A stretch of DNA of 64,000 nt, from the NCBI GenBank assembly GCA_963705305.1, contig OY970067.1, positions 1,312,001-1,376,000 on the forward strand, written 5' to 3'. Made by a program: the position numbers and the translations under genes. The notes under the pieces are model-generated. The model was given only the letters and a program-made list of their open reading frames with translations, had not been told where the DNA came from and did not search any database. The stretch comes from an uncultured Methylomirabilota bacterium. Lineage in GTDB: Bacteria > Methylomirabilota > Methylomirabilia > Methylomirabilales > 2-02-FULL-66-22. Shown here piece by piece: positions 15,457 to 44,902 of the stretch (positions are counted from its first letter, which is position 1; every line of letters begins with the position of its first letter).

Positions 15457-15467
15457 GTAATGCGGGT

Positions 15468-19232: not shown

Positions 19233-19234
19233 GG

Positions 19235-21266: not shown

Positions 21267-21920
21267 CTCCCGAGCGCGTCGAGTGGCAGCGACCTTGCGC
21301 TGATTTGGACTCTCGAATCAGCTGGCCGTATTGCGTCCCCATGGCTCGTTATGCTCCGACGAGGACCATCCAGCGAACGAGCAGTCAACGGGGTCGGCGC
21401 CTCTCCAGTTGAGTACGTTGGTGGCTGAGACAATGTCGAAGTGCTGGTCTGAAGAAGTCTCGCGGGCGTTTCGGGATACCTCGTTCTACCGGTTGGATTG
21501 CGGGAGGAGCGCCAGGTGAACCTTGCGAGAAAAGGTATCGCCGAGCGCAGGGGCTGTCAACTACAAGACCTTGTCTCGGCAGCACGAGGGGCTCCGGATA
21601 CAGACCATCAAGCATACCTCCGACGGCAGATCGAGATGGCCAGGGTGCAGCGCCGAGAGGTAATGATTCTTGGGGGGGGTAACGCTGCCTTGGACGAGAG
21701 ATGGCCGAATAGGTCGAAGCCCCGGGAGCTGGAATGCTCCTTTTGGACCCAGTCAGCGCCTCCTCAAGGATTTAGGCAGGGCTGAGCGAGGCGTGCGCCC
21801 CACGCGTCAGACCGATGGGCCGGGGGGGATGGTCTCATCGGGCAGCGCACCCGATGGCGGATTCCCTGGTGTCTCCGCAGCGTCGTCTCCATCGCAGACC
21901 GCACCCACGCTCGACTGGAC

Positions 21921-24177
21921 TCAGAACAGCGCGAGCTGGGCGAGGTGGGGCCGCTCGGCGAGGAGGTCCTGCAGGCGGTCGGCGGTGACTTCGATTCGGC
22001 TGGTCTTCTTGCGGCGGGGGTGGGTGTGCTCGATGAGAATCGACGATGAGGAGTTTGCTCCCGATCTGTTCCAGGGATTCGGAGATTGCGGTGATCGGTG
22101 GCGCCGGCGCCATCGCGGTCATGGTGAGGAGCTGCTCCATATCGCGCTTGCGGAGGCGGGCCCAGACGGCCTCGGCGGATTCGGTGGAGCCGACCCGGTG
22201 GACTAACGCGCGGGCAAGCTCCAGGACGAGGGAGTCGGCAGGGTCCGCAAGGACGCCGAGGCCCTCGCTGCCGAGCTCCCCCTCGATGGCGAGGGAGGCT
22301 TCGAGTTTCGTCGCGATCAGCCGGAGGGCTGTGTCCTGCATGGTGCCCAGGTACGTGAGGAAGAATACGCGGCAGGGGGCGGTCTGCCCGATCCGCCAGG
22401 CCCGTCGTGCCGCCTGGCGCAACGTGTAGATGGAGTACCCCGGACAGAGGTACACCATCGTGGGCGTCCGGAGCATATCAAGTCCGGTCTTGACCAACTC
22501 GGGGTTACAGATGAGGACATCGAGCCCCGCATCCAGACGTTCCTGGATCCACGCCTCCCGTCGGGCGGCCTCCACGCTCCCCTTCAGCACGGCCACCCGA
22601 AGGCCGGCGGAGGTGAGGAGTTCCGCGATCCGGGGCGTGAGGTCCCGGGTCTCGGTGAAGGTGACGTAGACCAGCACGCGCCGCCCCTCCTGCTGGACTT
22701 CCTTCCGGCACAACTCGACCAGTTCTTCCTCCTTCGGCAGGGGCCCGGGCACCCTCGGGGCGGAGGCGATCACCTGCTGGGTGTGGGGGTCCACCACGAT
22801 CTCCTCACGGAACGCCGCCTGGTCCGGGTAGCACAGGAGGCTCTGCAGATATGCAGCGAGGAGGTGTCGAGAGCCCGCGGCGAGCGCGTCCCGCACCGCC
22901 TGGAGGAGAGCGTCCGCGAGGCCGTGGTAGGCGCGGGCGAGGTCAGGGGACATGCTGAGGCTGACCACGCGCTCCTCGTAGGGCGGCAGAGCATCCGCTA
23001 CATCGGCCAGCCGGAGGAAGATGGTGTGTGGCAAGAGGTGCCGGCCCAGGACGAGTGGCGAGATGCCGGGTTTCCGGCGAATACTCACGGAGTGCGTCTT
23101 GCCCCGCACCGTCCGGGCGTCGCAGGCGTCCTCATGGGGACCCAGGCGCGTGATCTTTTCCTGGATGCCGTACCGGGCCATCCACGCTTGGACATTCCGG
23201 TACTGGAAGCCGTCGGCGACCAGGGCAGAGGCGTTGGCCCGGAAGAGGACGTGGAAGAGGTTATCTGCATACCCGCCCAGAAGGGTCCCGGTGAGCGTGA
23301 GGGTCCAGTCACAGGCTGCGGCGAGCGATCCATAGGCGTGCCCCTGGCCGGTGGCCGCCCCCTTCAATTCGTGCACTTCGTCCGGGATGAACAGGTCAAA
23401 GACCCCCCGCAGATGGTGCTTGATGAACGTGGCCGGCGCGTAGCGGCGGGGCCCCTGGGGATCAGGCCCGAAGGCCGGTTCGCCGCAGGCAGGGCAGAAG
23501 GTGTGCGTCCGGCGGAGCTGCGCGTCCGTGAGGGGCAGCCCGTCCGGGTCCCGCAGGATGGCCCCGCAACCACAACAGGCCGGCTCGACCCATGTCTGGA
23601 GGGGCGCAGACGGGTTCGCGGGATCGCGCTGTGCCCGGCGGCGGTGCCAGACCGCAGGCTGCCACGCGTAGTGGAGCTTGGCGCGCTCGCGGCTCAGGAT
23701 CCAGACCTCAGGGGCCGTGGGGGCGAGCGGCCCGTGCGCACGGATCGCGTCGGCCAGCCGGGTGAGGTGGCCAAGGGCATCGCGCCCGCCCAGGGGAATC
23801 GCACGCACGGTGGGCAGGACCGCCTTCGCCTCCCGCTCCCATTTCGGCACGAGATGGGGCGGGCACATGACGAGGGCGCGGAGAGGCCGCGGGGCGAGTG
23901 CCAGGAGCGCCAAGGCCACCGTGGTCTTCCCCGTCCCCATCTCCCCGCAGAGGTGGACAGCGCGGTCGCCCGTCACGAAGAAGGCCTTGGCGATGGCCTT
24001 GGCTGCCTCGGCCTGCGCCGGGTAGCACCGCCGAGGGAGCGCGGCGAGGGCCGCATCGTACTCGGGAGTCGTCCCCGCGTCCCGGAGGGGATCGTGCAGG
24101 ATCTGGAACGTCTGGGCCACCCGCTGGGCGAGCGGCTCCCCGAATCGGTCCAGGAACTTGGTGAGGCGGTTTGGCAT
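21921..24177 (-). CDS. SF2 (SNF2-like) helicase of the ICE backbone (apparent +1 frameshift at ~22038)
   Basis: Start MPNRLTKFL after GGAGG. GEMGTGKT, DEVH, LTGT, TGLD and QAARRAWRIGQ. Frame correction gives the tail ...RLQDLLAERPHLAQLALF-stop at 21921. Confidence 0.85.
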
Positions 24178-24256
24178 GGCGCGGCCTCCCGAGGAGAATT
24201 CTGGAAGAGTGAGCGCCCAAGCGTGTCCGGGTAGCTCCCGAGATTCCTGAGGGTGC

Positions 24257-25108
24257 TCAGAGCTGGACCATCGTCCCTGCACACGGTGCGGCGATCGGCT
24301 GCTGTGGGGCAGCCAGATTGGAACCGGGCGCCCCGAGCGACCCCGCCCCCGTTGATATCGGCTCGGGTGCGGGGGGTGGCCGGTGGGGTGGGAGGCGCTC
24401 GGGCGGAGGAGCGGGGAGCACCTCCGCCGCGATCGGCAGGGCCCCCTGCACCAGGGCGGCTGTGACCGCCTTGGCGAGGCGCTCGGCGTTGTGGAGTACC
24501 TCCCAACCGAGCCAGGGGCCCTCACCCTGGAGGGGGAGCAACGCCTCCTCGGTCTCCAGGTGGTGCCACAGCCAGGGGGCCCACGATGAGCGGAGAGGGA
24601 CCGGGGTGCGGGCATCGATGGCGCGGAGGAGCCTGGCCGGCGCGTCCTCTGCCTGCGTAGCAGGAAGGAGCAGGCTGAATCGCTGTGGCGAAGCCGCGGG
24701 GGTCCAGTCCGCCACATAGAGGCCATGCACCTGGCCGCAGGGGAGGCGGCGGACGATCCGCCGAGCGGGAATAGCTTCCGAGGACAGAACGCCCACCTTG
24801 TGCCGGCCTCGCCAGGACGGCATGTCGGTGTCGGCACGACCGACGAGCGTGATGGAGTCCTTCGCGCCTGGCCGGAGGAGGGTCGCCAGGATCGCGTGGA
24901 CGGCCTCGGTCGCCCCGCCAAGGGAGAGGAGGCGAAGGGCGTCCCCCGGGGCGGCGAGGTACGCGTGGACGAGGGCGGTGGCGCCACGGCACTCAGCGTA
25001 GAGAAACGTGGGTGGAGGGGTCACGAGCGCTCCTGAGGCAGCGGAATGAACAGGACGTGGAAGGAGGTTCCCCGAGGGCAGCCGGGATCGTATCGCAGTG
25101 ACCCTCAC
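24257..25108 (-). CDS. Hypothetical protein between methyltransferase and helicase
   Basis: 283-aa ORF overlapping the methyltransferase stop. Motifs LLSLGGATEAVHAI and TPVPLRSSWAPWLW. Confidence 0.7.
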   Translation of the reverse strand: MRVTAIRSRLPSGNLLPRPVHSAASGALVTPPPTFLYAECRGATALVHAYLAAPGDALRLLSLGGATEAVHAILATLLRPGAKDSITLVGRADTDMPSWRGRHKVGVLSSEAIPARRIVRRLPCGQVHGLYVADWTPAASPQRFSLLLPATQAEDAPARLLRAIDARTPVPLRSSWAPWLWHHLETEEALLPLQGEGPWLGWEVLHNAERLAKAVTAALVQGALPIAAEVLPAPPPERLPPHRPPPAPEPISTGAGSLGAPGSNLAAPQQPIAAPCAGTMVQL

Positions 25109-26151
25109 TGCACCGTCTGAAGCGTGCCGGTGTGGAGGTCCAGGGCGGTGATGACGATCTTCAGGGTGTCCCGCTCCGTGATGGTCCGGCTCCCGTCGGC
25201 GTGGGTCTCCTCGCTCCGCATGCTGGCCTTCTCGGTGCGCCCCTTGATGAGCACGGGGTGCCCGGTGCGGGGATCGCAGACCAGCTCGTTGTTCAGGTGG
25301 CCGCTGGCGAGCACAAGAGCGAGGTGACCCCGCCGCAGCGGCATGAGCGGCCGGAATCCTTCTGCGCCAGCCGGCGGGGTGAGCAGGCGGAGGAGCATCG
25401 GGTAGGCGCCGTGCTGCGCGATCTCGCCCACGAGGTCCTGAGGGTCCACCGCTACGCGCTGGAACAGCGGAGGGTGCGCCGCCGGGGCGACCGGCACTCG
25501 ATAGGGTGGATCCAGAGCTGTCGGCAGGTCGGGGGGGATGCTCATCCCGTGGCCGATAGCCCGGAGGCTCTGAGCGACGCCGTCATCCCGGCAGGGCGAG
25601 TCCTTCCGGATCCCGAAGAGCACGACCTGCGCGAAGCGGTCGTACGCCTCCCCGGGGAAGCGGAAGACCTGCAGGTCGCGCAGGTGCTGGGCGAGGACCG
25701 GGACCAGGCGGCGGTCGAGGCGCCGGTCCGGCAGGACGAAGACAAGGATGCCATTCGGGTGCAGGTAGCGGAGGGCGGCCTGAAGGAAGAGGAGTTCGAG
25801 CCGCCGCGTGGCCTCATCGGGCTCTGCCTTGGCGTCGTAGTCGTAGGGCGGATTCAGGAAGACGAGGCCGAAGGCCCCATTGGTGACGCGAACGCCCCGG
25901 ATGTCGGCGTGGAGCACCCGAGTCAGCGCCGTGGCGGCGGTCTCCGCTCTCCCCCGGTGGAGCTCGATGCCGAAGCGCTCCACGGGGTCGAGGGCCGCCG
26001 TGACGTCACAGAGCGCGGAGCCGTCTCCGCAGCACGGGTCGATCACACGGACCAAGCCGGGCGCGGCGGGGACCAGGCTTCGGGCGATCGCCGCGCTGAC
26101 GTCGGGTGGGGTAGGGTAATAGCCGAGCTTGCTCTTGCCGGCAAGGCGCAC
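25105..26151 (-). CDS. DUF6094-type class I SAM-dependent DNA methyltransferase
   Basis: GTG start after AAGGAG. KLGYYPTP, DPCCGDG, NPPY and C-terminal RPLMPLRRGHLALVLASG. Confidence 0.85.
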   Translation of the reverse strand: MRLAGKSKLGYYPTPPDVSAAIARSLVPAAPGLVRVIDPCCGDGSALCDVTAALDPVERFGIELHRGRAETAATALTRVLHADIRGVRVTNGAFGLVFLNPPYDYDAKAEPDEATRRLELLFLQAALRYLHPNGILVFVLPDRRLDRRLVPVLAQHLRDLQVFRFPGEAYDRFAQVVLFGIRKDSPCRDDGVAQSLRAIGHGMSIPPDLPTALDPPYRVPVAPAAHPPLFQRVAVDPQDLVGEIAQHGAYPMLLRLLTPPAGAEGFRPLMPLRRGHLALVLASGHLNNELVCDPRTGHPVLIKGRTEKASMRSEETHADGSRTITERDTLKIVITALDLHTGTLQTVQ

Positions 26152-26413
26152 GACGCAACTCCTTCGGAGGACGATCCCTCCCCTCAAACATTCCAACTGG
26201 CAGGCTTTGGGGTCGCGGTCGAGCGACCGACATCTCCTACCCGGGGGTTCCGTCTGGCGGCAGTCCCCAAGGGGTGTCGTCGATGCCGACGCTCATGGTG
26301 GATGGTGGCGGCGTCTTCTGTGGATAGCTGTCCTCTGCGCGCCGTCGGCTGGAAGGTCCTCGTCAAGTGACCTCCGCTGCCTGGGGGCGCCCCGGCACCG
26401 AGGACCCCGGGTG

Positions 26414-27619
26414 CTAACAGGTCCGGTGAAGCCACGCCCGGAGGCGCTGGAGCGGCGAGTGGGGCCTCGAGTCAGGGGTGGCGTGGGCTGCGAGCACCGG
26501 GACCAGGCACGACGCGGGAGCCCCGTGGCGGCAGAGCCAGAGCAGTTGCTTCGCCCGGGTCACCGCGACGTAGAGCAATCGCACCTCCTCGGCCTGCGCT
26601 GCCGGCGTGGCCGCGAACGGCGAGGGAGCGATCCCCTCTTGGCACCCGGCGAGGAAGACGACGGTCCACTCACCCCCCTTGGCCTGATGCATGGTGAGAA
26701 GCGCGATGGCGGTCCCGGGCTGGCGAGGGCCTTCGAGCGTTGCACTGGTGTCACGCTCCTCCCAAGAGGGTGGGCTGTACGTCTTCACGCCACAGCGCCG
26801 GGCCTCCTGACGGAGGATGCCCCCCTGGGCATGCGTCCGGATAAGAATGGCGATTTCCCGGGCGGGGATACCGAGGGCAAGGAGCGTCCGGACTTCCTCG
26901 AAGATCCGTCGGGCCTCCTCCGTGGGACTCGCCGCGGCGATCTGCCGGATGGCGGGATGGGCCTCCAACCGGACCGAGGCCAGGGTCCGACAGGGCGCCC
27001 CGGCGGGGGCGATCGGGGCGAGGAGAGTCCGAGCTGCCTCGACGATCTGGCGGGCGCTCCGGTAGTTCTCGGAGAGACAGAGGGTCCGAATGGGTGGAGG
27101 GAAGTACCGCTCCGCGTGGAGGAGATATTCGGCTGAGGCCTGGCGGAACCCATAGATCGCCTGGTCGGGATCCCCGACGAGGAGGAGCTCCGCGTTGGCC
27201 GTATGCGCGTGGAGCGCGGTGAGAAAATCGACCTGGCTCCGGTCCAGGTCCTGCGCCTCATCCACGGCGATGAGGGTGAGGTCCTTCACCCAGGCCGGGG
27301 CGACCCCGTCCCGCAGCACTTCGGTACAGCGCGGCATAAGAGCGTCAAGGTCAAATGGGTCGGGGCAGCGGTTCACGTCCACCAGGATCCGGCGCGCCAG
27401 AGCATGGAGGGTGCAGAGGCGCGGCGCGGGTACCCCGTGCCTGGCAAGCCGGTCCCGCATTTCCTGGGCCGCCTTGCGGGTGAAGGTGATCCCCAGCAAG
27501 GACCTGGCCGGGGCACCAGCTCTGAGCCGCGCGAGGAGCCACTCCACGATCAGCCGGGTCTTGCCGGAACCGGGTCCGGCGAGCACGCGATGAACCGTAC
27601 AGGGCGAGGCGGTGGACAT
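26414..27619 (-). CDS. Compact UvrD/Rep-family SF1 helicase (401 aa)
   Basis: AGPGSGKT, TFTRKAA, DEAQD, GDPDQAIY, NYRS, TMHQAKG and EEVRLLYVAVTRAK. Confidence 0.9.
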   Translation of the reverse strand: MSTASPCTVHRVLAGPGSGKTRLIVEWLLARLRAGAPARSLLGITFTRKAAQEMRDRLARHGVPAPRLCTLHALARRILVDVNRCPDPFDLDALMPRCTEVLRDGVAPAWVKDLTLIAVDEAQDLDRSQVDFLTALHAHTANAELLLVGDPDQAIYGFRQASAEYLLHAERYFPPPIRTLCLSENYRSARQIVEAARTLLAPIAPAGAPCRTLASVRLEAHPAIRQIAAASPTEEARRIFEEVRTLLALGIPAREIAILIRTHAQGGILRQEARRCGVKTYSPPSWEERDTSATLEGPRQPGTAIALLTMHQAKGGEWTVVFLAGCQEGIAPSPFAATPAAQAEEVRLLYVAVTRAKQLLWLCRHGAPASCLVPVLAAHATPDSRPHSPLQRLRAWLHRTC

Positions 27620-27732
27620 CGATGGGCTCCGTGGTGGATGAAGGCTGCACCAGAGGCAGAGGGAGCCTCTATCAAGGCGTGGGCCACCTGCTCGGGACCA
27701 GGCTCTCCCCTCCCACGACTCGCACCGTCCGA

Positions 27733-28269
27733 TCAGTCACTCCCTGCCGTGCGGGGCAGGCGACGGCGGTACTCCTCGATGAGCCCGTGGTCTGCGAAGG
27801 AGTAGCGGTCCTCCAGGCCGAGGATCACATGATCGATGACGGGGATCGCCATGAGCTCGGCGGCCTTGATCAGCTGCTCGGTAAGCCGTCGATCCATGGC
27901 GCTCGGGGCGCTGTTGCCGCTCGGGTGGTTGTGGACCAGGATCGTGGCCGCGGCGTTGGCGAAGATCGCCGCCTTGAAGACCTCCCGCGGCGCGACGGAC
28001 GCCTCGCTGGTGGTGCCCTTGCCGACGAGGTAGATACCGACGGGCCGGTTATCGGCCGACAGCAGGAGCGCCCAGACCTCCTCGTGGGGCAGGTCGCGGA
28101 GGAAGTCGAAGGCGCGGGCGACGTCGGCGCTGCTCGTCACGCGTGCCGGAACCTCTGCAGCCGTGGGCCGATGCCGGTAGGTGACGATCATCTCCCGGAC
28201 CCACGAGGCGCACGGGGGCACGGTCCGGGACTTGGCGTCCTGGAGCAGTGGCAGTTGCTGAGAGGCCAT
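27733..28269 (-). CDS. radC: RadC-like JAB domain protein
   Basis: EEVWALLL, PREVFKAA, HNHPSG...PSAMD and DHVILG. Start MASQQLPLL after GAGG. Confidence 0.9.
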   Translation of the reverse strand: MASQQLPLLQDAKSRTVPPCASWVREMIVTYRHRPTAAEVPARVTSSADVARAFDFLRDLPHEEVWALLLSADNRPVGIYLVGKGTTSEASVAPREVFKAAIFANAAATILVHNHPSGNSAPSAMDRRLTEQLIKAAELMAIPVIDHVILGLEDRYSFADHGLIEEYRRRLPRTAGSD

Positions 28270-28895
28270 GGGGAACCTCGGGAAATGACCCGGCGGACGT
28301 CGTCCGGGGCCGGGAGGAGGTGCGTGCAGTCGGAGCCGTCCCCCGGCCGCAGGCTGCGAAATGGCCATCCGCCGAAGCACGGGCCGGCGGGGCGTCGAGT
28401 GCCCCAGGCGTCGCGGACGGTCATCTGGTCTCATGGGCGGCCACCGACGGCCGGCGCGGGGACCCAGACCACAGGGGGGACGCGGGATCTCATCGCCTGG
28501 CCCCCTCGATCCCTGCCCCCCATCTTCCCTGCCATGCGTCCGAACCGGCAGGCAGTCAGGGAACCACACCCGAGGGGAGGGTGCGGTCCCCTGACACGAG
28601 GGGCGGGAGGTGCGCGAGGGCTCCGGTGGGTGGAAACACCGCCAGCTGCGGAGGATGAGCTCGCCGGTCTGGAGGTCGGCGCAGTAGGTCGCCGGATCGG
28701 CGGCCGGGTGGCGCGGCGGGTGTGACGGGGACAGAACCGTCGGCGAGATCGCTCGGATGCTCGGTGTCGCCGAGGGCAGTGGAGATCCGATCGTCAGGGA
28801 CACCGGCGGATCGTGGGCGCACCCTGACACAGCCCGAGACGCGCCAGGGGAGGTCCCTGATGCGTCTCGGGCATGGTGGGAACGGGCGGCCCTGA

Positions 28896-29307
28896 TCAGA
28901 ACGGGACCTCGTCCGCGTTCGCCGGGGCGCCCGCTTCCGCCTCGGGCGCACTCGGCCCGGTGCCGTTGCTCGACCGGGGCCCGACGAACTGCACTCGCTC
29001 GGCGACCACCTCGAGCTTGCTACGCTTCTGGCCTTCGGGCGTCTCCCAGTTGCGCTGCTGCAGGTGCCCCTCGACCAGCACCGTCCGGCCCTTGGCGAGG
29101 TGCTGCCCGCAGGTCTCGGCCTGTTTGCCCCAAACGACCACCGTCAGGAAGCAGAACGTCCTCGCGCTTCTCGCCGGCCTGGGTGGTGTAGGCCCGGTTG
29201 ATGGCTAGGTCGAAGGTGCACACGGGGCTCCCGCTCGGGATGTACCGGAGTTCGGGGTCGCGCACGAGGTTGCCGCCGGCGAACAGCTTGTTCATCGTGA
29301 AGGCCAT
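28896..29307 (-). CDS. ssb: Single-stranded DNA-binding protein (apparent +1 frameshift at ~29155)
   Basis: MNKLFAGGNLVRDPELRY...; second frame VVWGKQAE...KGRTVLVEGHL...DEVPF acidic tail. AAGGAG RBS. Confidence 0.9.
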
Positions 29308-29661
29308 GGTCCCGCTCCTTTCGTGCCCTCCCACTGGAGGGCGGCAGGGGCGTCAGAATAGGTGCCCCGGGGTGGAGGATCTATGAGTCGAGGGGTCCCA
29401 GTGCATCGGGGGCATGGGGCATCCCCTTGCACTACCGCGCACACCTTCGGAGGCCTGGACGATAGTCAGGAGGGCGTTCAGTAGAGAGGGGGCGAGGCGC
29501 ACCCGCGGGCATCGAAGAATGCTCGGAGATCGTGGCAGGCGGCGAGAAAGGTCCCGGCCGTCTGGGGGTGCTCCCGGTTGCCGGCAACGGTGAGTGCCTC
29601 GGAATCCGCGCCGATTCCCGGTGAGGTGCACGGCAACCCGGGGTGGGCTGGTTGGCAGAGG

Positions 29662-29868
29662 TCACGAGCGCAGCGTCAAGCGCTCGGACCGGAGGAACCG
29701 AGCTCCGCGGGAGTCCCCGGTCCGGGCGCCACGGCTGTGCGGCGTCCGGGGGGTCGAGCGGCCGATAGTGTGGAGCTCGATGCCGGTGAGGCCGAGATGC
29801 TGGAGCGTTTGCCTCGCCTCGGCGATCGTCATGCCGACGGATTTCGAGAGGATGATCGTCCTGCGCAT
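29662..29868 (-). CDS. Small hypothetical protein (68 aa)
   Basis: AGGAG RBS before MRRTIILSKSVGMTIAEARQTLQHLGL; co-oriented with the backbone. Confidence 0.4.
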   Translation of the reverse strand: MRRTIILSKSVGMTIAEARQTLQHLGLTGIELHTIGRSTPRTPHSRGARTGDSRGARFLRSERLTLRS

Positions 29869-30844
29869 GCCTGTCTCCTGTCCCTGCGCCTCCAGCGAGC
29901 CGGACTCGGTCGCAGCCGATGAGGATGGGTGCATCAAGGACAGCGTCTATCCCGTGGAAGCAGAGCGAGGCGAGGTCAACGGGGGCGCCGAGCCGCGGAG
30001 AGATGTCACGGATGGGCCGCGAGACCGCAGGGTGCCGAAGGGCAGCCGTCATCCCATTGTGGGGCAAGAACTGTAGGGCGGACCGGAGGCGCTTGCGGCA
30101 GCCTCGACAGGCGGCGATGGCGGCTCCGGCGCCTGCGATCGGCCGGATGGTGTGGTCGCGCAAGACCGGCGAGATGGAGACAGGTCAGGCATTCGTGACG
30201 GGGGGTCGCAACGGGCGAGGCTGCGCGCCTCAGCAAAGGCGCTGCACGGCGGGGCAGCGGTTCTGGCACGGCAGAGGTCTAGCAGACTCAGCGGGCATCG
30301 CGACGACGGGAGATTCACGAGGGGCAGCGGTCATCGAATTGCCGGTGCGATGGGTGTCGACAAGCAGCGGATGGAGGGACAGGAATCGCCGGGGAGAGGG
30401 GGGTGATGCCTACGGCCGCGGCGCAGGGCGTGTCAAGGATTGGGCGGCGGCGAGGTGGATGTCTTCGGAGATGGGGGAATCGTGATCGGTGCTATTCACA
30501 GTACCCGTGGTGGTCGGGTGGTGGCAACGGGGGCGGCGCGCGCGAGCGCTCGCAACGATCGAGGCGTTAAGGGGGCACGGTCTTGCGAGAGCCTCCGCAT
30601 CGTGGAGCGGGCTGACTGGATTACCAGCGACGGCTTGAAAGACGTCAGGCAGATCGGCCGTCGTTTCAGCCTCTGGACCTCACAGAAGCTGGACCGCTCG
30701 ACGCGGCAACGGAGTTCGTTCGGAGGTCTCCGATGTTGCTCCGGCATGTGACACAAATCTGCAGAGCGGTGCACTTCGTGACTGGTGGAGGGGACCGCGA
30801 TGGGGATGGGCGAAAAGGGTGTTGGGAGACGCAGTGATTGCTAG

Positions 30845-31124
30845 GGGTGGAATCGACAGCCCTTTTTGCCAAACCATCGAACAGCAAAATCGCCCACTTA
30901 GCGCGCCGCCCCACAGAGTCGTTAACCGCCCGTCGGTAACCGGCGCAACGTCGCCTACAGCAAATCCGCGAGGTTCCGGTCCCGCACGGGCCGCATTGGC
31001 AAAGGGGTGGATTCGACCGCTCGGATGGGCGGGGCGATCCTGGGCGTGCGTCGGTAACCGCGCGGTTACCGACGCACGCCATGGCGCGACTTCCGGCCGT
31101 CAACTGTATCCGGGTGGAATCGAC
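30845..31124. repeat. Repeat cluster with a perfect 38-bp palindrome (31043-31080); candidate oriT/oriV
   Basis: GGCGTGCGTCGGTAACCGC|GCGGTTACCGACGCACGCC. GTCG(G/T)TAACCG also at 30918 and 30932. GGGTGGA(A/T)TCGAC at 30845, 31005 and 31112. Confidence 0.75.
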
Positions 31125-31811
31125 CGAGGCCACCGCTTCCCTCAGGACCCTTAGCGGTGCCGACTCCTGCTCCAATGCAACACGGCGTGTCGGAAAGCAG
31201 GAAATGGATAACTCGCGGTCAGTCCTGAACGAAACCGGAAATGTGCATGTCGAAAGACAACATCGGGTGGCCGATCACTCGAGTGTCTGAGGATTCACGG
31301 TGAGTTATGATGACCCGCGATGGTGAGCCGGTGACGACGAGGCTGAGCCGCCTGCTGCGGTGGGCGGTCGAAGCCATCGCCGCCAGGGGCGATCTTTGCG
31401 TCGATTGGTACCACCGGGCGGGATGATTCAGGGGCGGCGATGCCGGCGGCGAGAGGGTGCCAGAGGATCCGGTAGTCTTGCAGGACAAGCCTCGGCTCCG
31501 AGTCCAGGTGGCAGGCTGAGACGACAGAACTGGAGGGCCCGGCCCTCCAAGTCCAGAGCGCTGCCGGCGTACCGACCTGGGGCAAGATCCTCGCACAGGG
31601 CGCAGCAAACGACAGGCGCCGACGCCCTCACCACGGAAGGGCGCGGTGAGAATCGACGACTTCCTAGATGCACCCGAGCGCCCCGAGAGGGCTGGGAACA
31701 ACCAGAACGGTCAGGGTGAGGCTGGGGGGCCAATCCCCGCGACGGCCATGTCGCATGGGGCGGTCGGTTTGGCCAGCCATGCCCCCCCTCTGACGCCTTT
31801 TCCGTCCTCGC

Positions 31812-32057
31812 CTACCACGGCCTTTGGGGTGGCGCGGGCGGGTCCATGAACAGCACGATCCCAAGCAGGTATGCCACCAAGCACAGCGCGAGAATGATCG
31901 GCGAAAGCGTGGTGGCGTACGCCCAGAGCCTCAGCGCGAGGTCGAATTCACCGAGATCCTGGCCGCGGCGAACTGCTCGTCGGTGGCTCCGCACCGCCAG
32001 GATCACGATGCAAAGCGGGAGTGCCAGGAGCATCACAAGCGGCACGCTCCCCTCCAT
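31812..32057 (-). CDS. Small two-TM membrane protein
   Basis: MEGSVPLVMLLALPLCIVILAV...LSPIILALCLVAYLLGIVLF; GAGG before ATG. Confidence 0.55.
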   Translation of the reverse strand: MEGSVPLVMLLALPLCIVILAVRSHRRAVRRGQDLGEFDLALRLWAYATTLSPIILALCLVAYLLGIVLFMDPPAPPQRPW

Positions 32058-32172
32058 CCTCGGCTTCCCGGACGGGCTGCAGCAGTGGTGCCTCCGCACT
32101 CGCCGTGACGGCGATCGCAGCTGCCGCCCGCATCTCGAGTTCGACCGGCTGCTCTGGCACGACAGAGCGGGC

Positions 32173-32499
32173 TCAGCGACTCATCCAGAGGCCCATGACA
32201 GCTCCGGCGATCCCGAGGAACAGGCCCACGGACACCCGCACAACCCACTCCATCGCGACGGCCTCGGCCACCGTCAATCCGAGCTTCCGGTGGGTCCAGG
32301 CCCCCGCCTACATGAGACCGCTTTCGCCCTCCACCCCCTGTGTCCGTCGCAGCCACCAGCTCCGGGGGCAGAAGCAATAGTCGGCCAATTCGTTGGCGCC
32401 CAAATCGGGGCGGTCCCCCCGCGGCGGTGGGATCCACGCCCCCCGCTTCTGCTGTCGCCAGCGTCACAGCGCCCCGCCTTTTGGTCCTTTGGATGTCAT
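32173..32499 (-). pseudogene. Cas4 N-terminal-motif protein with C-terminal TM helix (two in-frame stops)
   Basis: Manual translation: MTSKGPKGGAL*RWR...LGANELADYCFCPRSWWLRR...GLM*AGAWTHRKLG...VSVGLFLGIAGAVMGLWMSR. ATG overlaps the upstream stop (ATGA). Stops at 32464-66 and 32308-10. Confidence 0.7.
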
Positions 32500-33099
32500 C
32501 CGCCCAACGCCTCATCGCAGACGTGGCGTAGCGCGCACCGCTGACATCTGGCCGGCGAGTGGTGGTCCGCGATGGAGATCCTTGTTGATTGCCAGGGCCC
32601 GGCGCATCCGCTGGGCGGTCGCGAAGACCCCCTCCCGAATCTCCGGCGTGTTCTGAATGTGCACCTCACCGCGGGGAACCAGGGCCCCGCGTTCATCGAC
32701 GTACCGAATCCAGCCCTCGGGGGGCGTCTGCCTCACCCGGCTGTCGCCCTGGCAGAGGACCAGAGCCGTGGCGAGCTGGAGGATGTGGCTCGGCCGGACC
32801 TTCCCGGGCTCGAACCCCTGTCCTGCGGCCTTGTACTCGACCGGAAGCACGGCCCGAGTCGCGATGTGCTGCAGGAGCAAATCCACCTTTTCCGTGAGGC
32901 TCCATTCATTGTCCCGGAGCAGGATGGCCCCGCGGCTGTCCATTCGGGCCTCCTGACCCAAGTCAGCCGAGAACACCCGGTAGCCTTTCGGGGTGTTGGC
33001 CTCGATCCCTGACCGCCTGCGACGCCAGACCGACAGGACCGGGAATCCGGTCAGAGCCAGGAAGAGGAGCGAGAGGGCTGCGAGCGTGCCTGCCTCCAC
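32496..33099 (-). pseudogene. Membrane-anchored Cas4/Dna2-like PD-(D/E)XK nuclease lacking the N-terminal Cys motif (+1 frameshift at ~32568)
   Basis: N-terminal TM, LTEKVDLL, PVEYK, HILQLA and GWIRY. The alternate frame supplies SPARCQRCALRHVC (CxxC-x5-C). Confidence 0.75.
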
Positions 33100-33606
33100 T
33101 AACGGGGAAGCATACTCCGCCGCTTATGGAGAGGGCGATCCGCGACGGGGGGCTCTCTCAGGGGCAGTCGCCAACCCCATCAGAGAGAGGGGGGGCGCGA
33201 CCGGACCCCAATTCTCTCAACCCGCGCGTGCAGCGAAGAGGTGATGGCGCGCCACGCCATCGGACTCGCTCGGGTCAACGAGCCGCCGTACGCGGCGCAG
33301 GCGAGAAGGTGGTGAATGAGTTGTTCCCAGGGCAAGTATGGGGCTGTGCATCGGGGGACCAGGGGACTGGATCTGGCGGGGGTCAAGCTGTTTCGCAGGT
33401 GGGCCGCGGAAGCCACGGATAGCTCTATCAACTCCAGGTACCCTTATCATGGGATGGTCAACATCTATGGGTCCCGGATGAGCGTCCCGGCCGCGCTAGT
33501 GATCGGGCAGGCCACTTGGTCGGCGATCCGGCAGCGGGCGCGAAGCGATCGGGCCAGGGCGTTCCGTTCGATCTGGTTAGCGACTGTCTTCAAGACCGAA
33601 CGGCGC

Positions 33607-34767
33607 TTAGGCGGGATGTGAAGTAGGCGGCTCAGGTGCGGGGCCAGGGGATTCCGACTTCCCGCCGCCCTCGGGTGTTCCGCCGGTTGAGCCGGCCTCG
33701 GCGCCCCGCCGGAGATCGTCTCGGGTGAAGTGGACGTAACGGTCACTCGAGCGCCGGGAGCTGTGGCGAAGGAGGCCGGAGATCACCACGAGGTTCACGG
33801 CGTTGCGGAGGCGCTTGATCGCGAAATCGTGGCGCAGATCGTGCTGGCGCAGGTCCTTGATGTTCGCGGCGAGGCAAACGTCGTGGAAGACATGCGTGGC
33901 GTAGTCGACGGTCAGCGGGCGGCCGTCCGGCCAGCAGAACACCCAGTCGGAGCTGCGCGAGAGAGCCCCAAGAATCGCGACGGCCTTCTTGCTGAGGACC
34001 AGGTACTGCTTCTTGCCCGCCTTGGTTTCGGGCAGCTCAGCCAAGCGATCGCGCCAGAGAATCTTCGGCCACGTCAAGCCGGTCGCCTCTCCTGCCCGCG
34101 CACCGGTCTCGCCAAGGAACTCGAAGTATGGGTGGAGAACGGGAGGCTCGGTGGGGATTCCGGCCCAGAAGGCCTTCGCCTCCTCGGGGGTCATCTCTCG
34201 CGCGCGCTCGTTGTTCTCGGTCAGCAGCTCGACGGTGGCGAAGGGGCTGTGCAGGATCTTCCGTGCCTCCAGTGCGCGGTTCAGCACGGCCTTCAGGTCC
34301 TGCAAGAACCGATTGATACTCGCCGGCTTCCGCTTGCGTTTCCGCTTTTCGGTACGTGGGCCAACGGCCAGGTCGAGTTTGAGCTGCTCAATCTTGCTGG
34401 CCGGGATGTCCGTCGCCTCGATGTCGCCGAGCTTCTCAAGCACCTCGTCCAGCCTGCGCTCGATCACGTCGGCGGTCTTGTCGCCAGAGGCTTTCTTGGC
34501 GGTCATGTGCTCATTGATCAGCTGCTTCAGATGGACCGGCGGGAGGAATTTCTCTGGGAATCGCTGGCGGAGGACCTTCTCCGCCTTCTTGGCATCCCGA
34601 AACTCGACCGCCTGACTCTTCGTGCCGATGAGGGGACGATGGCGATTGCGGTCGCAGTCGTAGTACTCCACACCCCAATAACCCGGCTCCCGATTCGGAC
34701 CTACGCCCGGACCGGTGGGATCGGGTTTGAAGAAGAGGCCGCGGTCTTTCCCGCTCTTCCGTGCCAT
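33607..34767 (-). CDS. Tyrosine recombinase/integrase
   Basis: Catalytic set intact: GARAGE (R), TKAG (K), HDLRH, LLRH and DRY (Y). Also ASINRFL. Confidence 0.92.
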   Translation of the reverse strand: MARKSGKDRGLFFKPDPTGPGVGPNREPGYWGVEYYDCDRNRHRPLIGTKSQAVEFRDAKKAEKVLRQRFPEKFLPPVHLKQLINEHMTAKKASGDKTADVIERRLDEVLEKLGDIEATDIPASKIEQLKLDLAVGPRTEKRKRKRKPASINRFLQDLKAVLNRALEARKILHSPFATVELLTENNERAREMTPEEAKAFWAGIPTEPPVLHPYFEFLGETGARAGEATGLTWPKILWRDRLAELPETKAGKKQYLVLSKKAVAILGALSRSSDWVFCWPDGRPLTVDYATHVFHDVCLAANIKDLRQHDLRHDFAIKRLRNAVNLVVISGLLRHSSRRSSDRYVHFTRDDLRRGAEAGSTGGTPEGGGKSESPGPAPEPPTSHPA

Positions 34768-34800: not shown

Positions 34801-35073
34801 TTACGGCAGCGCTGTGTCGCGCGAAATCTGCGCGATGCGTTCACGATGGCGAGCGAGGTAGCGCTCCAGATCGATCCGGCGAAAGATGACACACCGGCCA
34901 ACCCGGATCACCGGAATGCGGTGCTTGGCTCGCCAGCGACGGTCTTCTAGCGTTCGTACCGAGACGCCGAGCAAATAGGCCGCATCCACGACGCGCAGCG
35001 ACTCGCGTAACGTCGGCTCTCTTGGATCGCTCGCCGCCCAAACTGGATCGCTGGCGCTTCCGAGGCCGCCCAT
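34801..35073 (-). CDS. Excisionase-like helix-turn-helix protein
   Basis: LRVVDAAYLLGVSVRTL...IPVIRVGRCVIFRRIDLERYL, directly upstream of the integrase. Confidence 0.8.
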   Translation of the reverse strand: MGGLGSASDPVWAASDPREPTLRESLRVVDAAYLLGVSVRTLEDRRWRAKHRIPVIRVGRCVIFRRIDLERYLARHRERIAQISRDTALP

Positions 35074-35409
35074 CTGTGCTCTCCACGCTTGATCACTGCC
35101 GTGATCGAAGCTGGCACGAGCGTATGGGGCCCCTGGATTCAAACAAGGACACATTTCTGTTGGGCAGGCCGAAATCAGTCCGGCGGTCACTCTTCTTGGC
35201 CCCGACCGGACCAAGTCGCTTGGAACAAGAGCTTCATCTCGCTGCCGGCACGCGGCTCAAACGGGGCAGGGAGCAATTCAATTCCGTGATTGAGATGTGA
35301 TGGGCCGAGCTGCAGCAGGTGCGACACGGAAGGCGGGGGGCTACGTCGGGGGTCTGGGAACCGGTCCCTTTTGAGACAGAATCGCCATCGCTGTATTTCG
35401 GGGGCTTAC

Positions 35410-35712
35410 GTGTCTCAAAATCCAGTCGCAAATCCAGCAAGACGAATTGGGTACGCCCGTGTCTCCACCGATGATCAAGATCCAGCCCTTCAAGTCGACG
35501 CCCTGCGCGGGGCGGGATGCACCGAGATCTTTGAGGATAAGATTTCAGGGGTGATCCGCAACCGTCCCGGGCTCGAGCGCGCCCTCGCTGCGGTGGAGCC
35601 CGGCGAAACTCTTGTCGTTTGGAAGCTCGACCGCCTTGGCCGGTCGCTGAGCGACTTGATCGACATCATCACAACGATAGGGAACTCCGGCTGCCATTTC
35701 CGCTCCCTCTCT
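35410..35712 (+). pseudogene. Truncated serine resolvase/invertase
   Basis: IGYARVSTDDQ...RPGL...LVVWKLDRLGRSL; similarity ends at FRSL, with no C-terminal helix or HTH. Confidence 0.85.
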
Positions 35713-36396
35713 TGGCGTCTCCAGGGCAACCCTATACCGGGCGTTGGCGCGACTTCCCGACTGAGAGCCCGGATGGCCGATGGCCGGGTGATTGGCGAGC
35801 GGACTTCTCGCTCGCGCTCAAGCACGGGAGGCCGCGATGCAGCCCGTTCAGTTGATTCGCACCGGGGAGACGCTGGTCCTCCATCAGACGGCACGGCGCA
35901 GTAGGACCGCCTCGTTTTCGAGGCGCAACTCCTTCTCGAACCGCAAGGCCGCCTTGTCGGGCGAGCAGGCCACGGCGCACTACCTGCGGGCACTCCACGG
36001 CATCGTCGAGCAGCAGGCGAGCGAGGTCCATGCGGCCGGACGCGGGGACAGAGGTGATGAACTGACGCAGTTTACCAACCTCCACACTCGCCGCACAAGC
36101 TTCGCATCCCGAGACTCGCCGTGATGCCGACGTGACTGCAATTCCCGCTCACTGCAATAGCTTGCGCTGACTCCTGCGGCTCTCGTGGGCAAGCGGCCGT
36201 GCCTCCGGGGAGACAGAGCAGCGCGAGGCTTGACGCTCAGTCTCGCCAGCCGTCAGCTTCTTCGCGGCGACCTCGGCCTTGACTTCGATCAGAGCAAGAG
36301 ATAGCCTTCGTTAGCATTCCACCGCTCGCACCTCCGCCTGCCCAGGCCCTCGGGCCTTTCATACGTTATGCAAACCTGACTGAGGGGGTGGGGCTC

Positions 36397-38952: not shown

Positions 38953-39027
38953 TGGCTCCCCGGGTAGGACTCGAACCTACAACCTAGCGGTTAACAGCCG
39001 CTCGCTCCACCATTGAGCTACCGGGGA
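38953..39027 (-). tRNA. tRNA-Asn (GTT)
   Basis: TCCCCGGTAGCTCAATGG...CTGTTAA...GGTTCGAGTCC...GGGGAGCCA cloverleaf. Confidence 0.97.
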
Positions 39028-43359: not shown

Positions 43360-43410
43360 ATGCTTCCAGGGACCCCCGGAACGGGGGGGCGCCGGACGGC
43401 CCGGGCAGCT

Positions 43411-43510
43411 CCGATCGGGACCCCTCGCGGCACCGGCCGCTCGCTGTTTACCGTTGCTTCCTTCCGGACCTGGCGGGGTTCACAGGGCTACCTTGCGCGA
43501 GACCCGATCC
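43411..43510 (-). ncRNA. ffs: Signal recognition particle RNA (4.5S)
   Basis: Conserved GCCAGGTCCGGAAGGAAGCAAC helix-8 motif within a long hairpin upstream of dnaX; ends approximate. Confidence 0.9.
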
Positions 43511-43620
43511 TCATCGCTGCTCAAACCGCCCGGCGCCCGGGTGATCGGCGGCCCGGACCGCCGAAAGGCCTAACAGACTGCTCTGCCGGAAGGCGCGTCC
43601 GCCAAGCCCGAGGCAACGGC

Positions 43621-43710
43621 TGGCGGAGAGGCCGGGATTCGAACCCGGGGTGGAGTTTCCCCCACACACGCTCTCCAGGCGTGCTCCTTCAACCACTCGG
43701 ACACCTCTCC
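43621..43710 (-). tRNA. tRNA-Ser (GGA)
   Basis: GGAGAGGTGTCCGAGTGG...CACGC-CTGGAGA-GCGTG, long variable arm, ends GCCA. Confidence 0.95.
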
Positions 43711-43786
43711 GTGGCCCCCCGTCAGTCATGCGTTCTCCGGCGTCGCGGACCGCCCGCCCCCGGCAGGCGCCCTGCGGTCGACGGCG

Positions 43787-43877
43787 TGGCGGAGAGGGTG
43801 GGATTCGAACCCACGTGGGAGTTGCCCCCCAACCCGCTTTCGAGGCGGGCCCGTTACGACCACTTCGGTACCTCTCC
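43787..43877 (-). tRNA. tRNA-Ser (CGA)
   Basis: CCCGC-CTCGAAA-GCGGG anticodon arm, long variable arm, ends GCCA. Confidence 0.95.
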
Positions 43878-43913
43878 CCGACACCGGCGCTTGTTTGCGT
43901 TTGTGGGGCGTCG

Positions 43914-44519
43914 CTAGCCGGCGGGCACGCCCTGGATCAGGGTGACCCGGTACTTGGCGTGCTCGAACGGCTGCATATCCGGGAACTTGGCGAAGAGCCA
44001 TCCCCGGTAGATCTCCTTCTTGTCCTCGAAGACCGTCACCGCCACGGCGGGGTTGGTCGGCTCGTTCGAGGCCGAGGTGATCTCGTTGCTATCCACCCGA
44101 AGCGCCGGCAGGAAATCTCCGACCCGCACATGGAGGCTGCTCCCCGGAATGTCCAGCTCGCCCCCCAGCGGCACCGTGAAGATCCGGGGTGGCCCGCCCC
44201 CATCCTTCTCCTCCACCTGGAGCTTCACGGCCTTCCACTTGCCCCTGACCGACCCGGGGACCCGCACCGTCCGGCTGCTGCTCCCCACGGGGGGATGCCG
44301 CTGTTCCGACGCGCTCTCGCCCGGCATGCCGATGGGCGGATGGCCGGGGGGCAGCGTCGCCTGGGCCGACTCGCCCCCCGCGGCCGCGGGAGGCGGCGGA
44401 GGCGGGGCCACCACGGCGAAGTAGAGCGCCACCGCCGCCAGCGGGACGGCCACCGCCAGGCCGATGAGGATCAGCCTTCGCGTGGACGGCCTCGGCGTGC
44501 TCCCGTCTGTGGAATTCAT
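43914..44519 (-). CDS. Membrane-anchored DUF2155-like protein
   Basis: N-terminal TM, LPPGHPP and SNEPTNPAV...GWLFAKFP...FEH. Confidence 0.7.
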   Translation of the reverse strand: MNSTDGSTPRPSTRRLILIGLAVAVPLAAVALYFAVVAPPPPPPAAAGGESAQATLPPGHPPIGMPGESASEQRHPPVGSSSRTVRVPGSVRGKWKAVKLQVEEKDGGGPPRIFTVPLGGELDIPGSSLHVRVGDFLPALRVDSNEITSASNEPTNPAVAVTVFEDKKEIYRGWLFAKFPDMQPFEHAKYRVTLIQGVPAG

Positions 44520-44631
44520 CGATCCTGCCCCGCAGCCAAATAGAAAAACCGGCCCTGCCCCGAGGGCTGCCGGCGGGCCCGTGGCGTGGCCGACAGGCGC
44601 CGTTCTCTTTCTCTGCTCGTTCTGTCTGGGT

Positions 44632-44723
44632 TGGCGGAGAGGCCGGGATTCGAACCCGGGGGCCAGTTTTACCCGACCAACCGCTTAGCAGGCGGTTGCC
44701 TTCGGCCGCTCGGCCACCTCTCC
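44632..44723 (-). tRNA. tRNA-Ser (GCT)
   Basis: ACCGC-CTGCTAA-GCGGT anticodon arm, ends GCCA. Confidence 0.95.
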
Positions 44724-44816
44724 AGCATGCTCCGTCTATCTGCCGGTCGCGCCCCTCAATCGGGCCCCCGTTTTGCGCGGGGCCGCGTTGTCGCGCGACA
44801 CCCCATCGCGCGTCGC

Positions 44817-44902
44817 TGGCGGAGGGGGTAGGATTCGAACCCACGGACCTTGCGGTCTTCCCGTTTCAAGCGGGATGCCTTCAACCACTCGGCCACCCCT
44901 CC
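44817..44902 (-). tRNA. tRNA-Ser (TGA)
   Basis: TCCCG-CTTGAAA-CGGGA anticodon arm, ends GCCA. Confidence 0.95.

Follow-up and report, generated by a model that had tools for sequence, protein, structure and literature searches.

Can the fold of a Cas4-family nuclease, an enzyme treated as a soluble agent of CRISPR adaptation, repair, or phage recombination, be divided between two membrane-anchored chains whose genes stand in the reverse of the normal order? The question is raised by a locus on the minus strand of contig OY970067.1 from an uncultured Methylomirabilota bacterium (assembly GCA_963705305.1), within the 64,000-nucleotide stretch from position 1,312,001 to position 1,376,000 that was analyzed here and that we call the window. 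An earlier note, made from the DNA letters and their open reading frames (ORFs), had described this locus as a split, order-swapped, doubly membrane-anchored Cas4-like nuclease, and profile comparisons, the co-occurrence of its genes, and a model of the complex are all in line with that description. We conclude that the locus is probably a decayed copy of a conserved three-gene module (genes 1, 2, and 3; Table 1) for a heterodimeric, membrane-tethered Cas4-family iron-sulfur (Fe-S) nuclease. The window copy is a pseudogene, a dead remnant that serves only as a pointer to its family, and it is in this family that genes 1 and 2 are shown to be homologous to the two ends of Cas4, to be linked and under purifying selection, to encode membrane helices, and to occur in a conjugative context.

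In its first frame, gene 1 runs from a GTG at 33099 to a stop at 32514-32512 and encodes 195 amino acids (aa), beginning with a hydrophobic helix that is followed by Arg residues and continuing through the core motifs KVD (D 32883-32881), PVEYK (E 32838-32836, K 32832-32830), and QLA. The three-Cys tail, CQRCALRHVC, lies in the +1 frame (Cys codons 32546-44, 32537-35, and 32519-17) and ends at TGA 32498-32496, so that the membrane helix, the RecB-type core, and the Cys tail beyond a frameshift are all present as the earlier note had them. The shortened ORF of the window has no Pfam match, even at E 10. Its relatives, 27 of which were found in a search of a large protein collection, are mostly 193-198 aa long; across 25 of these gene 1 relatives, the D, E-x-K, H, and three Cys residues are invariant, and all 25 aligned homologues (~196 aa) are continuous through ...LHRDH(R/H)S.AKC..C.....C. 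Intact gene 1 covers positions 56-178 of the 180-position cas4 model TIGR00372 (E 1.1e-8), and gene 1 relatives cover positions ~100-247 of 247 in PF12705, which is matched at E <= 10 by 12 of 14 family members (P0001, P0022, and P0015 at 27-32 bits, for a gathering threshold of 22 bits) and not by the truncated window ORF or the paralog P0006. An AlphaFold2 (AF2) model of gene 1, with a predicted local distance difference test score (pLDDT) of 79.3, found as its best Foldseek matches the Cas4-Cas1 protein 7mi4_A (E 3.7e-6), MGME1, Cas4 8d3l, and SSO0001 (4ic1), along with 4r5q, AdnAB, and Dna2. By way of single-chain relatives described below, the D, E, and K of gene 1 can be matched to GRADAI and IEIK in 4IC1, and all three are kept in the window copy.

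What gene 1 lacks is found on gene 2, whose ATG at 32499 overlaps the gene 1 stop as ATGA and whose frame ends at 32173, where the earlier note had read a Cas4 N-terminal motif followed by a membrane helix. The reading is ...RGDRPDLGANELADYCFCPRSWWLRR...AGAWTH... with a hydrophobic helix at the end, and its motifs are R.DRPD, a Cys (codon 32370-32368), WWLRR, and G-x3-H (His codon 32292-32290). An intact orthologue of 108 aa (L015:328-654) is available from one of the three closest metagenome relatives of the window locus (L004, L005, and L015); in 11 aligned loci, 16 columns are invariant, the invariant residues including C28, W32, W33, L34, G50, and H54, and the C-terminal membrane helix is conserved. 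Positions 2-50 of the 247 in PF12705 are matched by 9 of the 11 members (best E 5.2e-5) and positions 5-47 of the 180 in TIGR00372 are matched at E 1e-3; the PADLOC Cas4 models are divided between gene 1 and gene 2 in the same way as TIGR00372. When the gene 2 profile was compared with all PDB sequences, two Cas4 chains came first, 8d3l_I (E 0.045) and 4r5q_A (E 0.38), both aligned at the Cys and at G-x3-H; these E-values are weak, and antibody chains with 'YCAR.WWLR' rank next. The accessible text of PMC13621843 names His62 of SSO0001 among the residues that ligate the catalytic metal; the G-x3-H His of gene 2 would be its equivalent, in which case the active site would be composite as well.

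Table 1. Module genes of the window and adjacent features, with positions counted from the first nucleotide of the window
Feature	Position	Strand	Description
gene 1 (pseudogene)	32496..33099	-	N-terminal membrane helix, PD-(D/E)XK Cas4-type core, three-Cys tail
gene 2 (pseudogene)	32173..32499	-	Cas4 N-terminal module, then C-terminal membrane helix
gene 3	31812..32045	-	intact; 77 aa with two hydrophobic helices; position after gene 2 conserved
64-bp insertion	32142-32079	-	separates gene 2 from gene 3; not present in L004, L005, or L015
tyrosine recombinase (phage-integrase family)	33607..34767	-	PF00589, E 1.2e-20; directly upstream of the module
HTH_17 (excisionase-like) DNA-binding protein	34801..35214	-	PF12728, E 4.7e-9; upstream of the integrase

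Are the two genes partners or accidental neighbors? The same genome carries an intact paralog of the module 1.86 Mb away (gene 1 identity 72%; genes 1 and 2 at ~3207510-3208415 of the genome, L002 1498-2403), and its three proteins were compared by tblastn with all loci, excluding the window and paralog duplicates, the decayed locus L022, and L023, an ordinary Cas4 adjoining Cas1 and Cas2 that was dropped from the family counts. Gene 2 lies downstream of gene 1 on the same strand in 16 of the 17 related loci with room for it, and gene 3, the small membrane-protein gene that the earlier note had placed after the pair, comes next in 12 of the 13 loci with room. Purifying selection acts on all three genes among close pairs, with ratios of nonsynonymous to synonymous substitution (dN/dS) of 0.13-0.35 for gene 1, 0.21-0.46 for gene 2, and 0.06-0.23 for gene 3. 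Taken by themselves, the two stops in the window's gene 2 and the frameshifts in two close relatives could suggest that gene 2 is a non-functional leftover, the N-terminal fragment of a second Cas4 that degraded after a tandem duplication. At the level of the family this is contradicted by the intact gene 2 of the 11 aligned loci with their 16 invariant columns, by its dN/dS and conserved C-terminal helix, and by 270 small database proteins (50-189 aa) with matches to it at E <= 0.01, among them forms of 79 aa, labelled Promineifilum and Anaerolineae, that share its motif and end in a tail anchor; we give the leftover explanation next to no credence.

Gene 3 has no match in Pfam, PADLOC, or NCBIfam at the limits used, and an Atlas search returned unnamed clusters only, with a top score of 0.85. 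In one sub-clade (L011:6926-7438, L012:6913-7425, and L018:672-1184), it comprises 170 aa, and both membrane helices are followed by a Pro-rich extension at the C-terminal end. The idea that gene 3 is the middle hairpin of a four-helix insertion, which would make the module a cyclically rotated three-way split, found no support in an hhalign comparison with ten 4-helix single-chain forms (1%), a value that has to be read with the caveat that membrane helices carry little signal. The window's gene 3 has a dN/dS of 0.16-0.18 relative to L015 and L005, although the neighboring genes 1 and 2 are dead; intact beside two broken genes, it may have a function of its own. As a separate observation, in L017, L016, and L021, compared with L002, gene 1 is 47-48% identical to that of the paralog and genes 2 and 3 are 77-91% identical, a mosaic that points to recombination between gene 1 and gene 2 and to a partner interface that tolerates swapping.

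The origin of the two parts is clarified by relatives in which both lie on one chain. An exhaustive profile search with gene 1 returned 410 representative clusters at E <= 0.001, and the best 150 of these were sorted with a crude script that combined hydropathy and motifs. Ninety-seven of the 150 are of the gene 1 type (155-230 aa, one N-terminal membrane helix, a C-terminal CxxCx4-6C, and no N-terminal Cys motif), whereas 30 are single chains of 264-596 aa with a 'Y.YC(P/A)LSWW'-type N-terminal motif, 2 to ~10 membrane helices, and the core; another 5, long and multi-helix, have no such motif, 1 is a soluble protein, and 16 are fragments or unclear. The remaining cluster, P0149, is a 315-aa singleton known from a single 4.8-kb contig, a natural fusion that joins the two parts in the swapped order, with a helix, the core, and three Cys ahead of a linker, the N module, and a second helix. 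In public annotations, the proteins of this family appear as Cas4, PD-(D/E)XK nuclease, or hypothetical; the single-chain cluster of P0263 includes WP_052353351.1 of Methermicoccus shengliensis, annotated as 'CRISPR-associated protein Cas4'. When compared by hhalign with the ten 4-helix single-chain forms, gene 2 falls on their N-terminal part (97.5%, E 8.6e-12) and gene 1 on their C-terminal core (99.7%, E 6.7e-26). Together with the profile and PDB matches, this substantiates the Cas4 N-terminal similarity claimed for gene 2, and, because the two genes align with the two ends of the single-chain forms, the pair appears as a membrane-hairpin Cas4 divided within the hairpin, with the order of its genes reversed. 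The single-chain membrane proteins resemble the module in being homologous over both parts and in holding the soluble parts on the same side of the membrane; they differ in being one chain in the normal order with QxxxY kept, whereas the module is split, reversed, and joined by a third small membrane gene.

The split also exists without the reversal. Two planctomycete plasmids (NZ_CP019084.1 and NC_019895.1, one of them typed as conjugative, MOBF and MPF_T) carry an overlapping pair in which the first gene encodes a ~90-aa N module with a C-terminal helix and the second a chain of 169 aa that has its N-terminal helix before the core and three Cys. A MobF relaxase lies 2-4 kb from the pair. This arrangement shares with the module the small N-module protein ending in a helix, the helix-core-three-Cys protein, and the overlap of the two genes, and it differs in placing the N-part gene first, in having no gene 3, and in keeping Q...Y (QLGVYF). 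Because the same split occurs here in the normal order, the swapped order is best seen as a sub-variant. A search of plasmids returned one match for gene 1 and 19 for a single-chain form, mostly ordinary cas4, and a search of viral contigs returned no relatives, whether of gene 1 or of the gene 2 form with 79 aa.

Do the halves fit together? Residues 28-196 of gene 1 (with a 25-row alignment), residues 1-68 of gene 2, and a 4Fe-4S cluster were modelled as a complex, which reached interface scores (ipSAE) of 0.78, 0.78, and 0.80, the best of three controls reaching 0.07; in calibration, the mark used was attained by 116 of 157 solved complexes and by 2 of 215 mismatched pairs. The runs have at least 73% of their contacts in common, with a partner pLDDT of at least 64. 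In the model, C28 of gene 2 contacts residues 173-175 and 180 of gene 1, and the interface further includes residues 184-186, 189-190, and 192; the gene 1 Cys triad, C181, C184, and C190, lies within this region. The proximity of the Cys residues from the two chains that the earlier note had predicted is thus found in the model, which suggests that the four may converge on one cluster. As a model, it shows that the two halves fit as they do in Cas4 and says nothing about binding in the cell.

Several observations weigh against a two-chain nuclease. The complex model speaks to residue contacts only, and, because its chains are halves of a fold with solved structures, its success may reflect memory of solved Cas4 proteins. 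Scores with the Cas4 model are 35.2 bits for the gene 1 paralog and 18.9 bits for gene 2, below the curated cut-off of 65, whereas the single-chain relative P0263 scores 98.7 bits with the same model. The clade is without the Tyr of QxxxY, and its nuclease activity may accordingly be altered or weak. L013, which has room, carries gene 1 with neither gene 2 nor gene 3 and holds Dam-type methylase and ParB-like cargo in their place. Within the sub-lineage of the window (the window, L004, L005, and L015), gene 2 is broken in three of four copies: L004 and L005 have a 1-base deletion of their own in the Cys codon of gene 2 and an intact gene 1, whereas L015 is intact, which implies that gene 2 is dispensable at least there. 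Finally, the fourth ligand could come from gene 1 itself, in which one more Cys is invariant (C112 in the numbering of the paralog, in LC(Q/E)GD).

Some of these observations could be drawn together by supposing that gene 1 is a self-sufficient membrane-anchored nuclease, with C112 as its fourth ligand or with no cluster at all, and that gene 2 is a regulator, an inhibitor or an activator, which mimics the Cas4 N-terminal helix. The invariance of C112 in 25 close relatives, the solitary gene 1 of L013, and the intact gene 1 beside a frameshifted gene 2 in L004 and L005 would suit such an enzyme, as would the solo Cas4 of Methanosarcina mazei, a mutant of which, as stated in the accessible text of PMC13621843, is still active without its Fe-S cluster. 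We nevertheless consider self-sufficiency unlikely: the conserved G-x3-H His of the Cas4 N-terminal part sits on gene 2, the Cys tail of gene 1 (residues 172-196) is disordered in the lone AF2 model (pLDDT <50), the position of C112 is Val in the natural fusion P0149, both parts share one protein in the single-chain relatives, and gene 2 follows gene 1 with near constancy. A heterodimer that completes its four-Cys set across two chains remains our preferred reading.

How dead is the copy in the window? Lesions were mapped by nucleotide alignment with L004, L005, and L015, which are 88-90% identical to it. Gene 1 contains one extra base at ~32570-32568; because all three relatives are without it, this is a 1-base insertion in the window. 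In gene 2, TGA at 32466-32464 stands for CGA in the relatives, and TAG at 32310-32308 for CGG. A fourth lesion is probably the loss of the gene 1 start, since the ATG of the relatives reads ACG in the window (33081-33079). The alignment thus confirms the frameshift and two stops reported earlier as decay; the missing Tyr of QxxxY, which had been counted with them, is a trait of the whole clade, because QLATAL, without Tyr, is the consensus of all 25 relatives, and hhalign sets Ala opposite the Tyr of the single-chain forms. Against the view that the copy is a pseudogene, one could argue that it is functional and that its lesions are assembly errors or are bypassed by programmed frameshifting or read-through: they do rest on the assembly, and the read-derived contigs are short, come from relatives, and cover the locus in part (one, of 151 nucleotides, has CGA at the TGA of 32466-32464). 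Yet the lesions are four and independent: besides an indel that does not fall in a long homopolymer, there are three substitutions, of which one changes two bases (CGG to TAG), and this makes assembly error unlikely; the relatives need no recoding, the transfer genes of the element are gone too, and decayed copies exist elsewhere (L004, L005, and L022). A functional window copy is accordingly very unlikely. In a sample of the phylum, 4 of 201 genomes matched; three hold the gene 1 family, one of them in decayed form, and the fourth holds an ordinary Cas4. L022 (G076:C76), from another genus of this phylum, is a distant copy of the gene 1 type that has decayed: it contains two TAG stops and has lost one Cys.

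Where do intact copies reside? The earlier note had placed the locus on a mobile element, and the integrase and HTH_17 genes directly upstream (Table 1) agree with this; elsewhere, intact copies lie in the backbones of conjugative elements. Their gene order is: HD-domain protein <- coupling ATPase (TrwB_AAD_bind / TraG-D_C) <- / -> small helix-turn-helix (HTH) protein -> gene 1 -> gene 2 -> gene 3 / <- TraG_N <- TraH. Among the 12 loci with at least 1.5 kb of upstream sequence, 10 (the paralog locus L026 and nine others) have the coupling protein upstream, the exceptions being L003, where a transposase gene of the insertion-sequence type is found, and the window; TraG_N and TraH lie downstream in five loci (L003, L010, L012, L018, and the own-genome paralog L026). 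The window contains the integrase and HTH_17 genes and no type IV coupling protein, TraG, or TraH, and the sub-lineage of the window has its flanks from 31418 to 33525 in common; with the transfer genes absent and the flanks shared, the window copy is taken to be a remnant adjoining an integrase. In this neighborhood, a large HD-domain protein adjoins the coupling ATPase (L013:1251-3605, L026:3443-5506, and also L011, L012, and L014). The stretches scanned in this element family gave no match to classical relaxase families, and this HD-domain protein is a candidate relaxase.

The module is not CRISPR-linked. As the earlier note had remarked, the window contains no CRISPR-like repeat array, only four small tandem repeats, and no match to Cas1 (PF01867) was found in the 98.9%-complete, single-contig genome, the control being positive in 7 of 14 named genomes. 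Cas4 itself (TIGR00372 / PF01930; 4IC1 SSO0001, 4R5Q, 8D3L, and 7MI4) shares with the module the D, ExK, and Q of the PD-(D/E)XK core, the fold as judged by Foldseek, the set of one N-terminal Cys and a C-terminal CxxCx(4-6)C, and G-x3-H. The module differs from it in consisting of two polypeptides with a membrane helix on each and swapped gene order, in a four-Cys set that is complete only across the chains (three C-terminal Cys on gene 1 and the N-terminal one on gene 2), in the absence of the QxxxY Tyr from the clade and the scores below the curated cut-off, and, relative to CRISPR adaptation, in having no Cas1 in the genome and no array in the window.

We posit the following arrangement. 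Gene 1 would provide an N-terminal membrane helix, a cytoplasmic PD-(D/E)XK core (D, ExK, and Q), and three C-terminal Cys residues, and gene 2, tail-anchored by its C-terminal membrane helix, would provide the cytoplasmic Cas4 N-terminal helix with the fourth Cys and the G-x3-H His. By the positive-inside rule, the Arg-rich stretch after the gene 1 helix and the basic part before the gene 2 anchor suggest that both soluble parts are cytoplasmic. Docked at the inner face of the membrane, these parts would rebuild one Cas4 fold in which the Fe-S site, and probably the metal site too, is composite, with neither chain complete alone. The ancestors would plausibly be single-chain Cas4 relatives with an even-looking number of helices (2 to ~10) between the parts, from which a split in the hairpin and a swap of gene order would have produced the pair. 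Gene 3, a small two-helix membrane protein, would accompany the pair, and the whole would constitute a backbone component of an integrative conjugative element, situated between the type IV coupling ATPase and TraG/TraH.

What could such an enzyme do there? In F-like and SXT-like elements, the entry-exclusion genes (traS/traT and eex) lie between traG and traD. The module resembles them in its position between TraG and the coupling-protein gene and in encoding small inner-membrane proteins, an analogy of position only, since there is no sequence similarity. The module may cut or trim the ends of DNA at its crossing point in the membrane, most likely those of incoming DNA, as a means of exclusion or defence for the element; we put this forward tentatively, at less than even chances. 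The processing of DNA in transit that the earlier note had suggested would suit a place next to the type IV coupling protein. To our knowledge, the exclusion proteins described so far are not nucleases, and we know of no exclusion system with a nuclease-based mechanism. A membrane-associated complex is also found in the membrane-embedded defence system Kiwa (KwaA/KwaB), whose proteins are unrelated and which offers a conceptual comparison only; in the accessible text of PMC11785009, Kiwa is said to sense phage infection and plasmid conjugation.

A bolder extension of this proposal would unite the three products in an inner-membrane machine at the site of translocation that destroys or trims the crossing DNA, amounting to nuclease-based entry exclusion or defence, and we regard it as doubtful. 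The companion idea that the hairpin split would make nuclease activity conditional on the assembly of the two halves is just as speculative; in the same scheme, gene 3, which is under selection in a dead copy, may be an independent exclusion or immunity factor. The module might instead serve conjugation itself, for example by acting on the transferred strand, which it would trim or process in donor or recipient cells, rather than on incoming foreign DNA. Its place in the backbone, with a coupling protein upstream in most loci, would accord with such a role, as would the closeness of the planctomycete pair to a relaxase gene; it has, however, an HTH gene of its own and is encoded on the other strand from the transfer genes, and we know of no conjugation system that needs a Cas4-type nuclease. 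We judge a role in conjugation itself to be rather unlikely, and processing of the element's own transferred strand to be less likely than action on incoming DNA.

Other features of the window are noted here for completeness. Direct repeats of the tRNA-Asn end that might mark the borders of the element were absent at a length of 16 nucleotides or more, and the GC profile shows no clear border. The tRNA-Asn gene (38953-39027) lies near the island, and four tRNA-Ser genes and the signal recognition particle RNA gene cluster further on (43410-44902). At 12769-16592, an 895-aa AAA_21/AbiEii-like ATPase is followed by a Schlafen AlbA_2 / HATPase_c_4 protein, both resembling genes of defence islands. 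A DUF2201 metallopeptidase/VWA protein adjoins a MoxR-like AAA ATPase at 17811-20329 (minus strand), and positions 21835-28830 (minus strand) encode a Helicase_C protein of 1050 aa, a DUF6094 methyltransferase, a UvrD-like helicase, and RadC, genes such as mobile elements typically carry as cargo. The ~3 kb downstream of gene 3 (28830-31800) have no ORF with a family match and no similarity to the TraG of intact elements and are probably decayed DNA. On the plus strand, a serine recombinase (resolvase) ORF at 35290-35904 covers profile positions 2-100 of 145 and may be truncated.

How much of this has been described before? A 2017 phylogenomic study of Cas4 (PMC5704561) mentions once, in its accessible text, a clade of Cas4 proteins from conjugative plasmids of Burkholderiales, and in that text 'transmembrane', 'split', and 'permut' have no occurrences; the DUF2779 Cas4-like fusion in the accessible text of PMC13621843 is unrelated. 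Our literature search, which reached sources other than subscription journals, found no account of a Cas4 that is membrane-anchored, split, or permuted. What the present analysis adds is the swapped gene order, the fusion that occurs naturally in that order, gene 3, the position in the backbone of conjugative elements, and the pattern of decay.

In this family, the Cas4 fold is tethered by two separate anchors and encoded by two genes in reversed order, within a conjugative backbone and beside a DNA-translocating ATPase. If the two chains do share one Fe-S cluster and one active site, the module would be a natural case of a metallo-nuclease that is split and circularly rearranged and that must assemble at the membrane to be active, and it would point to mobile elements that handle DNA at its point of entry or exit.

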